Assembly: GCA_964016885.1 (NCBI GenBank)
Contig: OZ024740.1
Span: 154,876,001 to 154,940,000, forward strand
Source of the DNA: Eledone cirrhosa
Taxonomy: Eukaryota
Reading direction: 5' to 3'
DNA: 64,000 nt
The notes under the pieces were generated by a model. The model made no database searches and was not told where the DNA came from. It worked only from the letters and a program-made list of their open reading frames with translations. Positions 11,700 through 30,003 of this stretch are shown here, piece after piece. Both the position numbers and the translations under genes were made by a program. The first letter of the stretch is position 1. Each line of letters opens with the position of its first letter.

Positions 11700-12350
11700 T
11701 TAAGGATACTATTTATGGTTATGTATATAATAAAACCTTTTATGGTTATATATTTTTTATACAAACCCCAAATAGTGAAAGATAGTCATTTATTACTATC
11801 TTATTACCAGTAAGATAAATAGCTCAATGTAATAACATCGGTGGTTTTACAGAGCAGTTATATAGAGATTACAATAATCAAAGTTCAGTTTAAATCATTT
11901 ATTTGCTTACAACTGTTTCCTCCAAACCGAGGCTTGGATTCTTCGGAGCAACTATTTAGTGATCTATAACATACTTGACCTCCTTTTCAACACAAGAGAC
12001 ATACAAAAACATATGCATATATTGACCCACAGTGGGATGACATCCATCATAATGATATAGCATGGCAATTTACATATAAAGGTTAAAGGATAAAAATAAA
12101 AATAAAAATAAAAATGAAACATTGGCAGTTTATGAAGATAAAGCAAGAGGAAAGTTTAGAGTAGTCAATGTATGAAACAATCTCACGTGTAGCATGCACG
12201 CGTGTCTTATTTATACAGGGTTAGAGTGCGGTAGATTGTTACTTGTAGGATCAGGCAGTTAAAGCAGGCAATCGATAGTATTATGTGGGCTGAATTGTTA
12301 AATCATTTTTTCGCATACACCTGTATGATATACAATCCCGAATGTAGAGA
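11700..12350 (-). mobile_element. PLE pLTR/3' fragment related to the Hydra-clade element at 24250-29805
   Basis: Shares TTATTACCAGTAA...AGCTCAAT...TTTTACAGAGC and HHR layout with 24339-24487. Confidence 0.7.
11903..11951 (-). ncRNA. Minimal type I hammerhead, CCGAAGA core variant
   Basis: Minus strand: TTGCT-CCGAAGA-atccaagcctcggtttggag-GAAA-cagttg-TA-AGCAA. Confidence 0.72.
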
Positions 12351-12581
12351 AACACCAAAATATCAAAGATATCAAACATATTATAAGACATATTATAGCG
12401 TAGGCAAGACAGTACCACTGTCTTCGAGCACACCACCACTCACATAATCCATGAAACGCAATATATAGACCTCGGGTCTATCATACAATCCACGATGGTT
12501 CAGCATAGAACCAAGTTATAAACCATTTCTTGTCGATTCTTAATTAATAGATCATGTTGTTTAGTTTTGTGTGATAATATC

Positions 12582-14555
12582 ACCGGGTTCCCTATGATTC
12601 AGGTGATATCATCAGGTATTCGAAATATAATAAGTGAATGTAATAGATAAAATCCATGGGGCTGAAAATCAAAGACCTGAGAACGACCGCCATCCAGCAT
12701 CTTCCACCTTTGCCGGTCGCCCTCAAGTGACGTGGATAAAGCTTACAGTGTGCTACTACCGGTCAAATAAAGGAAAACAGAAAGGAATAGGAACATAAGT
12801 CAGCGTTAATATCATGCCACAAGAAAAGAAAGAAAGAAAGAAGAGAAAAGAAGGGGGAAGGAAGAAAAGGAAGAAGATGAGAAGCCAGGGTTAATGTCAG
12901 TTATAAGAAGAAAGACAGAAAGAAAGAGGAGGAAAGGTCGGTATTACAGTCAGGCCAGGAATGTTGCGAAAAAAAAAAATTTTATTCTAAGGGACCCGTA
13001 TTTTAACAACTACTACCTGTCAAATATAGCCAAACAAAAAGGGGAAGGAAGATAAGTCAGCGTTAATATCATGCCACAAGGAGAAAAACAGAAAGAAGGG
13101 AGAAGAGAAGGAAGAAAAGGAAGAAGAAGAAAAGTCAGGGTTGATGGCTACAAGAAGAAAGATAGAAAGAAAGAGGAAGAAAGGTCGATATTAATGTCAG
13201 ACTACAGTCAGGCCAGGAATGGCGCGAAAAAAAGATTTTCAAAGGGACCCGTATCTTAGCAGAGGTAAATATAGTGGGGGTCAGTATGTTATAATGTGTG
13301 AGCAGAAGATTGGAACGTTACATTTTTGTTTAGACTTATATGATGAATTTAAAAAATGAATATTTAATATTAACATTATAAAATTAAAGAAATTAGAAAA
13401 TTGAAAGTTAAACAGTTTAACATTTGTAAGGTTGCGATGTTTAAGCAAAGAAAGAGTCTTTTATGAAGAAACTTAAATTTTATTATAGAGTAAAGATTAT
13501 GTCTTTGTTTAGCCGTCAAACAGCATGCGGCGACTACAAGCTTGGGCAGCCCATCACTCCGAGTGATATCGCCTAGCGAAAGATATGGAAATCGATTTTT
13601 CCGAGCACTCTAAGAATGTATAACAGGCTTCAGGTGCGCCAGCAGGAAGTCAGCCCGCATCGTTAGGCCATTCTTTACAAAACCAGTACTATTCCTTTAC
13701 CCAAGAGGGGGATTTGCTTAAGTAGAGGGAGGCGTGATACATCTAATAGTTCTGATTTGATCTGTAATTTAAAGGTACAATATGGCGGTCAAAAAACCGG
13801 CTGCGCGCCGGGCCCCAGGGGCGAATCAAGCCACTCCGAGTAGTTTCATTTACCGAAAGAAGGGGAAATTTATTTTTCCAAGCACTCAAGGTAGGCCTAT
13901 GCGCCAGGGGGCGGGTCCCGCCGCCAAGAAAACCAACCCAACAGTCCGACAGAAAGTTGGAACGTTAAAATATTGTTTAGATTTATAGGATGAAGTTGAA
14001 AGAATTCAGAATAACATTATAAAATTAAAGAGTAAGAAGATTGAGAATTGAACAAATAGAAAATTGAAAATTAAACATTTAAAAAACTTTTTTAAGGTTT
14101 TGGGTTGCGGGGTTTATTTAAAGAGAGTCTTTTATGTTTTCCTTTGTTTGACCGGTAGTAGCACACTGTAAGCTTTATCCACGTCACTTGAGGGCGACCG
14201 GCAAAGGTGGAAGATGCTGGATGGCGGTCGTTCTCGGGTCTTTGATTTTCAGCCCCATGGATTTTATCTATTACATTCACTTATTATATTTCGAATACCT
14301 GATGATATCACCGGATTCATACGGAACCCGGTCATTGAAATGATCATAGTATAATAAACCTTTCAAGGATTTAACACAAATCCAGCCTCCTGTCATTTCA
14401 TTATAATATTTAACTCCGTACTAGCACCACCAACTACAAAAACAAAGACGGTTGAACTGCTTTACATTGAGTACTCTCCATATTATTACATCAAGATTGA
14501 CCATACGGAATTGACCAGCTCTATCCAGTGGTGAATCTCAAACCTGAATAAATGA
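12582..14555 (+). mobile_element. Non-coding element with ~200-bp inverted repeats (12582-12779 / 14135-14332), probably a non-autonomous PLE
   Basis: Inverted repeats directly visible; degenerate HHR core (CTGATGA...GGAAcccggTC), downstream ACTC...TACATTGAGT hairpin, ends in (TA)n; no TSD found. Confidence 0.6.
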
Positions 14556-14814
14556 ATATATATATATATATATATATATGTGTAAATGTGCGTATGTATA
14601 TAAGCATGTATATTTTATGTCTCTCTTTTATGTTTTTTTGTGTTTTTTTATATTTCTTGTGGATACATTCTTATTAGTATGTCAAGGTTGACACTTTCCT
14701 TTAATTACTTACTCCCTTACCTCCTTTACTTCTGCATCTGAATGTAAGTGTGTGTGGGCGTGTTTATGTGAGCGCCTCAATATCCATATAGTATAGTTAT
14801 AATAATAATATATT

Positions 14815-15040
14815 TGTGTGTGTGTGTGTGTGTGTGTGTGTGTGTGTGTGTGTGTGTGTGTGTGTGTGTGTGTGTGTGTGTGTGTGTGTGTGTGTGTGTG
14901 TGTGTGTGTGTGTGTGTGTGTGTGTGTGTGTATGTGTGTGTGTGCATGTATGTATGTGTATGTATATGTATGTGTGTATATATATATATATATATGTATA
15001 TGTGTATGTATATGTATGTGTATATATACATATATATATA
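14815..15040. repeat. (TG)n/(TA)n microsatellite
   Basis: Direct observation. Confidence 0.97.
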
Positions 15041-15279
15041 TTCTGTCTGTAGATTGTAGACATTAGCCCTAAATTTTTATATTTACATACACTTTTTCAA
15101 CATGCGTATACATATGAACATACAATTTTATGCACATCTGTGAACGGTTTTACATACATATATACACACACCTAACTGTATTTTCTTGATGGATTTTTAT
15201 GTATTTCATTGGTCTATTTAAAATCTGTTCCCAAACAGACCTGTAATTTTGAATTATTGTTATTATCAATAAATATGCA

Positions 15280-27905: not shown

Positions 27906-28812
27906 AATTATGGTTTTACGGGCCGCAAGGATGACATCAATTTTGGATCTAGTAAGGTCACTATTGTTCATAGCCATAATTAATGCCTTGTTTAATAGGA
28001 TAGGGGGAATAGAGGTGTAGTACGAATTAATATCAAATTGTATAATTTTTTTTTTTTATTCTCATTAATATCATTGAACCATTCAATAACTTCACCAGTA
28101 TTTCCCCACAGGTTAGGATATATTTTATGTTTAAATTGGGGGGTGATTCTGTCTAATATATTTTTTTGCTGATAATTCCAATGTCAGATTTGGAAGGGCA
28201 AATTAGTCTTATAGATGGGTTACTATTAAAGTCTTCCCGATGGTCTTTCAGAGAGAATCTTGGGGGGTTAGGGGTGTATGGCTGTGTATATCTCTGAAGT
28301 TCTAATTTACATACTATACTATGGCCTTCTATATTTATATCTTCTAGGTTTTTAATAGTGGTTTTCTTATAGCTCCTATGCAGTTCTTTATATATAAATT
28401 TTCTATATGTATCGTAATCTAGGCTATATATATTATTAGTTTTATCAGCATGTACTAGAATTTTCTTATTTTTATTAAATCTTTTAATAGTGGAGTTAAG
28501 GTTGTTTAAGAAGGTGTTGTTTCTATTAGGATGTTTTCTATACCTTATGCTCTTAACTAGTTTTATTAAATCATTTTCGAAAGAGTTTAATAAAGTGTTG
28601 TGAGGTGGGCTTTTAAAAGTTTTAAAGCCATAAGAGTCGAAATTGTTTGCATCACTGTTTTTGTCTGTTCGGTTTCTATCGTAATGGAATGTCCTCCATC
28701 TCACTCTATTGATAAATGAGTTGACACTATTAATCAATAATTTTTCGTACGTATCCCTAGATGGTATTGGGATGTTCTTAGTAGATATAGGAAGATAATC
28801 TTTGATCAGCAT
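27905..28812 (-). pseudogene. Hydra-PLE N-terminal region and start of RT (frameshifted)
   Basis: ORF 28153-28812 plus downstream NLWGNTGEVIEWF...IQFDINSYYTSI (RT motif A). Confidence 0.85.
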
Positions 28813-29713
28813 ACTGGTAATTTTATGTATGTTAGCTCAACAGTATGGAGCAGTTAATAATAATAATAATAATAATAATAATAATAATATTTATACTTAT
28901 ATATATATACACTATATATAATTATAAACAGTAAGGTCAGAAATTCATTACCACCTTATTACCAGTAAGAAAAATAGCTCAATGTAAATACATCAGATGT
29001 TTTACAAGGCCGGAATATAAATTACAGAATAATCAAAACTATGTTCAAAACATTTTATTGCTGACAATCGTTTCTTCCAAACTTTCGTTTGGAATCATCG
29101 AAGCACTAGCAAAGTTTAGACAGATCACTCCATAACAACTCGAACCCTTGATAAGATTGTAATTGGACCAATATACAATCCACAGTTATAGCTACCAATA
29201 AACATCTACTAAAATATAACCAATGTAATGGAAAAGAAAACCTTAATATTAATACTCACAACATATGTACATTTGAACATTACCGGAACAATTATCACAT
29301 ACATCCACCATTAACTTCATAGAAACTGCTTTTCATACCCAAGCATCCCTGTCTGCTTAATATGCTTTTATACCTGTATTGTATTATGTGATACCTTTGC
29401 CATACTGTGATATATATGCTTAGTACCATTGCTTGTTTCTTACCTGGGTATTCTGTACATGCCTAACACATCTGCACTCTTCCTATACGCTTGCATATGT
29501 ACTGCTAATGTCCTCGTTTTGCGAGTAACTTTCTTCTTTATTTCCTCTATAATTGTTGTATTATTCTTTTATAATCTTTGTCGCACCCACTAATACTGAC
29601 CACATCATCTTCACTCTTTAAATATGACACTGTTAATGACAACACTAACATCTACGTATCTTTACGATTGTTCTGTGGAATAGGAGGTTAATTATATGTC
29701 TAAACTTTGCTAG

Positions 29714-29760
29714 TGCTCCGATGATCCCAAACGAAAGTTTGGAAGAAACAATTGTCAGCA
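29714..29760 (+). ncRNA. Minimal type I hammerhead (inverted pLTR copy)
   Basis: Reverse complement of 24441-24487. Confidence 0.78.
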
Positions 29761-29811
29761 ATAAAATGTTTTGAACAGAGTTTTGATTATTCTGTAATTT
29801 ATATATATATA

Positions 29812-30003
29812 TATAGGAAAAGAGTCAGGACCCCGACAGCTGTGCTTCGGCCGTTTCGACAGCTAGATCTAGCTGTCGAAACAGGCGGAGCTCAGTTATC
29901 GGGATCCTGACTCTTTTCTTATTACCCACTCTTCTACCCTAAGTATCGAGTACTCTGGTGCGTTATGGTCTACCACACTTCTTTACCACACTTCCTTCGT
30001 GTG
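29812..30003 (+). mobile_element. Small fold-back element (112-bp hairpin plus tail), likely PLE pLTR-derived
   Basis: Perfect 30-bp palindrome at 29853-29882; arms carry an HHR 3' half (GAAAcggc...gctgTC); (TA)n on both sides. Confidence 0.6.

Follow-up and report, generated by a model that had tools for sequence, protein, structure and literature searches.

Paired covarying hairpins mark the two ends of Hydra-clade Penelope-like elements in Eledone cirrhosa and related loci

The stretch analyzed here (64,000 nt of Eledone cirrhosa, GCA_964016885.1, contig OZ024740.1, positions 154,876,001-154,940,000 of the forward strand; hereafter the window, whose own numbering is used throughout) contains a broken Penelope-like retroelement of the Hydra clade, with a short bulged hairpin downstream of its hammerhead ribozyme. 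Together with 91 related loci it reveals a clade-wide structured element, two copies of which mark the two ends of Hydra insertions and which is apparently undescribed. Each hairpin is probably an anchor for the element's own protein, situated just 3' of a site where complementary DNA (cDNA) synthesis starts. An initial annotation of the window had reported the hairpin at six sites and proposed it as a conserved recognition element for the reverse transcriptase (RT). The conserved, covarying structure is borne out by the outside loci and recognition by the element's own protein is still the best reading of the sequences, but the geometry is not the one proposed.

Structure and covariation

The related loci were picked by protein alone, with the motif not used as a criterion. 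Thirteen come from genome contigs and 78 from metagenomes (best 80 of 470 confirmed stretches, 46 of 64 parts scanned); the protein alignment was built from 28 of 36 homologs. The Hydra contigs L001-L013, which have (TA)n flanks and lie inside bacterial genome bins, are most likely host DNA, judging by their content, and no relatives were found in viral contigs.

According to 84 non-redundant copies out of 103 distinct ones, the consensus is GCUC-Y-N-N...N-N-R-U-H-GAGC-ACUBU. It folds into a 4-bp GCUC/GAGC base, a 2-nt 3' bulge starting with U, a covarying inner stem, and an unpaired ACUBU flank, the last of which the initial annotation had overlooked. The three inner pairs beside the bulge are Watson-Crick in 81, 66, and 48 of the 84 copies, compared with shuffle means of 45, 24, and 21, and none of 20000 shuffles gave counts as high. 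The first inner pair is U-A in 27 copies and C-G in 54, and the second shows all four Watson-Crick types; the inner helix is thus not the fixed UGUA/UACA for which it had been taken. As for the register, pairing with the 2-nt 3' bulge reaches 0.90, whereas other 3' registers stay at 0.25-0.40. The covariation counts come from an anchored table, MAFFT being unable to align the 5' arm over variable loops. Because the finder scored inner pairing, the 5' arm was re-chosen without that term among the called copies, which returned an identical arm in 78 of 78 (Watson-Crick in 76 and 61). A model-fitted alignment has 97.5% paired cells, a figure biased toward the model.

Well-supported branches of a protein tree of 45 loci force at least 8 changes between the U-A and C-G states, and compensatory changes thus exceed what relatedness would give. 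The tree is a quick one with five multi-element loci excluded, and the careful tree search is unfinished. Regarding the outermost pair, the swap between G-C and A-U noted earlier is present in the window, but A-U occurs in only 1 of 115 outside rows with letters on both sides.

About 13 positions are strictly conserved in sequence. The bulge U is found in 83 of 84 copies and the unpaired flank is also conserved in sequence, as for a protein site. G-U wobbles outnumber A-C (14 vs 5, p 0.03), leaning to the sense strand; this bias favors the sense strand mildly and does not separate RNA from sense-strand DNA.

A reading in which the ACUBU flank lengthens the outer stem was rejected, the base before GCUC being variable. 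A search of Rfam 15 with the window (E up to 5) and 12 of the 91 loci (E up to 1) gave nothing credible at the motif; the rows returned were one sub-threshold small nucleolar RNA (E 0.073 or worse) and otherwise microsatellite microRNA rows. A reading as a selenocysteine insertion sequence (SECIS) was also rejected, with no Rfam match and a consensus that lacks the AUGA/GA quartet, a SECIS feature. No description of the motif was found in Rfam or in full-text literature searches, outside whose scope were Repbase, Lunse et al. 2017, Pyatkov 2004, and subscription papers. Nor does one appear in the parts covered of PMC11167929, PMC8557442, bioRxiv 10.64898/2026.07.22.740005, PMC4209133, PMC7229834, PMC5737381, PMC3846280, and PMC11893778; statements below that cite any of these papers refer to the same parts.

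Two copies per element and clade distribution

Stretches that contain both a hammerhead and the start of the open reading frame (ORF) number 34 and represent 23 families, 22 of which have two copies of the motif. In the lone exception, L037, the junction is interrupted by (TA)n; in three families extra overlapping calls were removed by eye. In these 22 families copy 1 lies 38-56 nt and copy 2 102-134 nt downstream of the hammerhead cut. Copy 2 is followed by the AUG after 15-58 nt. Positional enrichment after hammerheads, as claimed in the initial annotation, is confirmed: 129 of 136 covariance-model matches fall within 4% of bases (those no more than 200 nt downstream of a hammerhead or upstream of an ORF start). 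The remaining seven are four pseudo-long terminal repeat (pseudo-LTR) or 5' untranslated region (5'UTR) copies, judged by eye, and three weak ORF matches.

Among the six new Hydra consensi of Craig et al. 2021 (PMC8557442), Hydra-2_Amil, Hydra-1_Ajap, Hydra-2_Ajap, and Hydra-1_Crog (from coral, sea cucumber, and sea louse) display the motif by eye, and Hydra-1_Amil and Hydra-1_Obim show a partial or divergent one. Five exact 11-mers gave 4 matches in the small Hydra file and 1 in the far larger Naiad and Chlamys files, the latter apparently within coding sequence. The other Penelope family of the window (hammerheads at 17635 and 15984) has no motif copy. Hence the motif, first thought to be general to Penelope-like elements, is specific to the Hydra clade. 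It can serve as a marker by which these elements, and non-autonomous forms derived from them, are found and delimited in invertebrate genomes.

Deviations from the consensus are common to both copies in 4 of 43 elements, vs 0.32 expected, two of the four being sister families. Shared deviations fit a family-specific reader, but duplication could also be their source. Both copies are deviant in L046 and L084 (the sister families, U-A outermost pair) and in L028:120-255 (altered 3' arm and flank); these three families would be useful for tests of protein-RNA co-variation.

Element ends next to the hairpins

Element 3' ends (n = 36 rows) were taken from alignments of each element copy to a longer reference of the same family, with masked references. 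Twenty-one of them sit 2-8 nt upstream of a hairpin, mostly at 3-6 nt, with 11 at copy 1 and 10 at copy 2, from about 15 families by eye. Such positions make up 8.4% of all positions and 31% of those ending in TAT or ATA, and with all 36 rows kept the clustering has p 5e-14 and p 8e-4, respectively. All 22 microsatellite-flanked rows end within 14 nt of a copy. Between copy 2 and approximately 250 nt into the ORF no element end was found, apart from three returned rows at the end of the reference.

With genomic 3' ends as a proxy for the cDNA start, the position is therefore fixed, each of the two copies lying 2-8 nt 3' of an element end. The initial annotation had placed the hairpin between the self-cleaved 5' end and the point where cDNA synthesis starts, a placement that fits copy 1 alone, with the long end as reference. 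If the ends are RT starts, each hairpin lies 3' of its own start and is thus not copied from the start that it marks.

In sequencing runs of the same species, loose ends that pass into (TA)n occur at 29015, which is 4 nt upstream of copy 1 of the window family (13 and 23 contigs of one sample, 104 reads of another). In 8 of 9 head-to-head Hydra insertions copy 1 is present in one arm, whereas the other arm stops before it (p 0.018), L052 and two window units in this tally being scored by eye. The tail, i.e., the difference between the two ends, is typically 54-75 nt long.

Two side observations concern ends elsewhere. In the 5'UTR at L061:440-467, a (TA)n run stops 5 nt upstream of copy 2, as though insertion or expansion had taken place at the putative start site itself. 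The non-Hydra Penelope family of the window (15725-17907 and 11017-11370; GIY-YIG domain, cysteine linker; hammerheads at 17635 and 15984) likewise has head-to-head units in which a short end is combined with a long one; its tail of approximately 58 nt is without the Hydra motif, and simple folding of the tail gave no clear counterpart.

A candidate anchor for cDNA initiation and its alternatives

The reading that we favor, from sequence and end positions, is that the hairpin serves as an anchor just 3' of the start site, the protein probably recognizing the stem base, bulge, and flank. The TA-rich stretch immediately 5' of the hairpin would pair with the nicked (TA)n target as primer. A start before copy 1 would produce the short end, and a start before copy 2 the long end with copy 1 carried along as the tail, so that two hairpins would provide the two starts behind the Penelope tail; this assignment is part of the same reading and equally probable. 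Here the genomic ends of Hydra elements are taken as RT starts, by analogy with the Poseidon element PAc of Anolis carolinensis (Frangieh et al. 2024, PMC11167929), whose two internal RT starts match the two genomic ends that define its tail. A linear monomer cut by the hammerhead offers only 40-130 nt 5' of the sites, so that the template would need to be either circular or a tandem RNA made by read-through. Animals are known to have retrozyme RNAs of circular form that carry type I hammerheads (PMC7229834). More speculatively, an enzyme on a circle might copy through the hairpin and come back to its start, and the 5' ends would thereby be accounted for as well.

A tentative extension, which we regard as possible but doubtful, is that the Hydra protein acts as a dimer whose two subunits occupy the two hairpins of the same RNA molecule, tandem or circular. 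Both strands of the cut target would then be primed, the first immediately before copy 1 and the second immediately before copy 2. For PAc, both target strands are cut and extended, and a dimer is predicted (PMC11167929). Such a dimer, if real, would explain the Penelope tail, the unequal head-to-head ends, and unit copies that run from site to site, and it would represent a portable signal of 25 nt that sets the start of a telomerase-like RT inside an RNA.

A number of observations weigh against the anchor. The link from genomic ends to RT starts comes from a Poseidon element in which this sequence motif is not present. Fifteen of the 36 end rows fall outside the 2-8 nt range (among them inversion joints, points where families diverge, and three ends already counted), and the rows are not independent. 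Some 5' ends lie at the same places (L008, L013, L021, and probably L037; 11 rows), and initiation alone leaves them unexplained. The TA-rich bases before the copies mean that microhomology explains part of the clustering and blurs junctions by a few bases. One of the nine head-to-head units is short/short (L004), with long/long in none of the nine. The read test covers copy 1 of the window family, the copy-2 stretch having been skipped as repeat. Finally, the fold of short copies has little stability (−2 to −8 kcal/mol), and in many instances of copy 2 the inner stem consists of 1-2 pairs.

The main alternative, for which the 5' ends at the copies speak, is that the element's GIY-YIG endonuclease recognizes the hairpin in single-stranded DNA, either displaced sense strand or cDNA, and by cutting a few bases beside it sets both the 5' and the 3' ends of insertions. 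Covariation is blind to RNA versus sense-strand DNA. In bacteria, the GIY-YIG nuclease SsnA recognizes a hairpin of single-stranded DNA by both sequence and structure, with cleavage a few nucleotides upstream (PMC11893778), Craig et al. 2021 credit the tail to endonuclease-mediated resolution (PMC8557442), and the Drosophila virilis endonuclease required tail sequence, according to Frangieh et al. citing Pyatkov 2004 (PMC11167929). SsnA, however, belongs to a different GIY-YIG family, PAc genomic ends match RT starts mapped in vitro (PMC11167929), and the long/short asymmetry of inverted arms (8/9) has no obvious cause in a cutting model. We therefore consider cutting unlikely as the whole explanation; initiation and cutting can also be combined, with RNA used for the start and DNA for the far end.

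Less probable still is a role in the mRNA, such as protection of an uncapped 5' end, cap-independent translation, or autoregulation, with end clustering arising merely from adjoining TA-rich sequence. Both copies do lie within the 5'UTR of the cut RNA, with copy 2 close to the AUG, and TAT/ATA positions are enriched beside the copies (31% vs 8.4%). The distance to the AUG, however, is variable (15-58 nt), in contrast to the tight distance to the element end (mostly 3-6 nt); clustering exceeds the TA-only expectation (p 8e-4), and ends past copy 2 were not found. A signal in duplex DNA, whether a promoter element or a site for a protein, or a sequence with which the hammerhead folds might be suspected from the strictly conserved positions (~13), the constant location 3' of a hammerhead, and the pseudo-LTR promoters of other Penelope-like elements, but is very improbable, since arms 8-73 nt apart, compensatory inner changes, and a fixed bulge register are needless for duplex recognition, and a hammerhead partner is at odds with the varying distance to the cut (38-77 nt), the two copies, and the lack of conserved hammerhead complementarity by eye.

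Penelope-like RTs are the closest retroelement kin of telomerase, and how they choose an internal start with an optional tail is the question that an anchoring hairpin would address.

Comparison with known systems

The 3' stem-loops of long and short interspersed elements (LINEs and SINEs) lie 5' of a start site at the RNA end and are copied. Examples such as those of eel UnaL2 and the R2 3'UTR likewise represent a small conserved cis RNA stem-loop for the element's own protein. The Hydra hairpin differs from them in being 3' of a putative internal start, not copied from it, and present in two copies; it would thus work like a retroelement recognition signal of unusual position and duplication. 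In telomerase RNA, diversity-generating retroelements (DGRs), and DRT2 RNAs an internal template is held by flanking structure. Hydra RNA would resemble them in that structure beyond the copied stretch positions an internal template. Unlike them, it would be copied at length from a nicked chromosome and not by repeat addition, and it has no sequence or Rfam match to them.

Among Penelope-like elements, a tail on one of the inverted pseudo-LTRs was already described (PMC3846280). PAc resembles Hydra in having two end positions that define a tail. It needs RNA downstream of its start (up to +172, with a start at +111 to +118), and can dispense with hammerhead cleavage. Its starts lie in AC-rich RNA inside the ORF, its tail is 30-40 nt, and no recognition motif was defined in the parts of the paper covered (PMC11167929); the Hydra signal, in contrast, is a doubled covarying 5'UTR hairpin, with the longer tail given above. 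The Hydra motif was not seen by eye in the printed PAc template. The same inspection showed a different hairpin with a 3' bulge just after the main start, which is a lead only. Thus, the single in vitro study located starts and no recognition motif, and a short, covarying, clade-wide element at a fixed distance from both ends, with natural mutants, makes the start-site question directly testable.

As for the Hydra clade of Craig et al. 2021, the window ORF and the 91 loci share its protein marks, hammerhead, and (TA)n targeting. Several complete ORFs are present among L014-L047. In the parts of that paper covered, only the hammerhead is annotated in the Hydra consensi, the tail is credited to the endonuclease, and the word "hairpin" occurs 0 times in the main text (PMC8557442). 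In SsnA and its NTS repeats, as would be the case in Hydra elements, a GIY-YIG nuclease goes together with a hairpin whose flank gives it an orientation, the site of action lying a few nucleotides upstream. Unlike the Hydra protein, SsnA is bacterial, single-domain, and acts on DNA only, not RNA (PMC11893778), and no sequence relation was shown.

The Hydra element and hairpin sites of the window

The Hydra element at 24250-29804 has a broken ORF at 25587-28812(-), with an N-terminal part that includes DKT, a CxCx5C linker, and a GIY-YIG domain at the C-terminus; the RT core is missing, and a nested LINE fragment takes its place. This fragment, at ~26700-27890(-), has a zf-RVT domain and is alike to 2450-3341 and 46641-47150. 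Placement in the Hydra clade was made by tblastn and motif comparison: translation shows DKT in place of DKG and the CxCx5C linker, the Pfam GIY-YIG match has E=4.7e-4, just under the curated cut-off, and type I hammerheads in the pseudo-LTRs and (TA)n insertion are recognized by pattern and pairing. An Rfam scan of the window returned no hammerhead match. Near the N-terminus the element has RWR, vs RWK in the homolog consensus. The best fold matches of the predicted Hydra protein are DRT2 RT and telomerases (E ~1e-9, TM-score ~0.33), which indicates general RT likeness only, and the fold search locates no RNA-binding site. Further Hydra ORF remnants lie at 52631-52191(-) and 60505-59807(-).

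Copy 1 of the 5' pseudo-LTR (28977-29010, -) has two changes in its 5' arm, at which most reads have the consensus (e.g., 83 of 83 first mates on the + strand of run X21 at 29008). Copy 2 (28835-28851, -; E=0.11) ends 22 nt before the AUG at 28812, and copy 1 of the 3' pseudo-LTR is at 24359-24392(-), with a hammerhead at 24483-24445(-) and a long end near 24250. The inverted, 5'-truncated arm at 29116-29804(+), with a hammerhead at 29718-29756, ends in (TA)n 4 nt before the copy-1 position, which is a short end. Relative to the ORF, depth over the copy-1 region 28938-29005 is higher by a factor of some hundred in contigs and of tens in reads, suggesting that a truncated or non-autonomous form is very abundant. 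Many read ends at 28942 with mixed flanks may reflect family divergence or the edge of a skipped repeat, and were not used.

All six sites of the initial annotation were found at the coordinates and strands given there. Its pattern matches the window 5 times, and 100 block-wise dinucleotide shuffles each gave 0 matches; this overstates the surprise, as the pattern was derived from the same sites; the independent test is the outside loci. Copies at 29010-28977(-), 28851-28835(-), and 24162-24186(+) had been overlooked. The short covariance model, trained on 11 equal-length copies with no window sequences, misses the long-loop sites at 14413 and 15488 and the mutated copy at 29010. The claim that the sites belong to dissimilar families stands for five families among six sites; those at 11822 and 24359 are one family group (77% over 177 bp), to which the mutated copy at 29010-28977(-) also belongs. 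An upstream hammerhead, likewise claimed, is reflected in cut-to-motif differences of 53, 64, 77, 41, and 53, but the hammerheads are uneven in state: those at 11946, 24483, and 14299 look intact, that at 19956 has TAAA instead of GAAA, no CUGANGA core was seen upstream of 15488, and only a hammerhead 3' half lies upstream of 29928.

The copy-1 hairpin at 11822-11855(-), with E=0.0064, follows a hammerhead at 11946-11908(-), and its long end is near 11690. At 14413-14472(+) the hairpin has an A-U outer pair, a 52-nt inner part, one inner mismatch, and a full ACUCU flank, between a hammerhead at 14299-14349 and a long end near 14556. Copy 1 at 15488-15568(+) has a 73-nt inner part and a deviant flank; it is preceded by a degenerate hammerhead (3' half near 15400-15411) and followed by a long end near 15620. 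The nearest to the clade consensus is copy 1 at 20057-20077(+), with E=2.6e-6, a hammerhead at 19956-20016, and a long end near 20115; the inverted partner arm stops 7 nt short of the position at which this copy would begin (19846).

A weak copy 1 of another family, at 29928-29951(+), lies in a fold-back insertion (~29817-29995) whose other arm ends approximately 5-9 nt before the copy. This "weaker form" of the initial annotation has the full 3' flank and E=0.049 with the model free of window sequences, but its minimum free energy fold is not motif-like. A further copy at 24162-24186(+), with E=0.0024 and a long end near 24238, is head to head with a hammerhead arm at 24064(-), its family being a presumed one. 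Near 14413, 15488, 20057, 29928, and 24162 no ORF remnant was found; the families at these sites probably belong to the Hydra clade, judging by the hammerhead, the (TA)n flank, and the motif itself. The hammerheads at 51293(-), 57814(-), 1404(+), and 20315(-) reach (TA)n after approximately 27-65 nt with no hairpin, as expected for short ends.

Other features of the window

A 1039-aa open frame at 5557-8676(-) contains an apurinic/apyrimidinic endonuclease, an RT, and a PHD finger directly after the RT. Broken Pif1 helicase frames at 53534-55612(-) are probably a Helitron remnant. A near-perfect tandem array of ~407-bp units occupies 8933-11021, and a tRNA match with a long variable arm lies at 36724-36807, with a related copy near 38163-38272.

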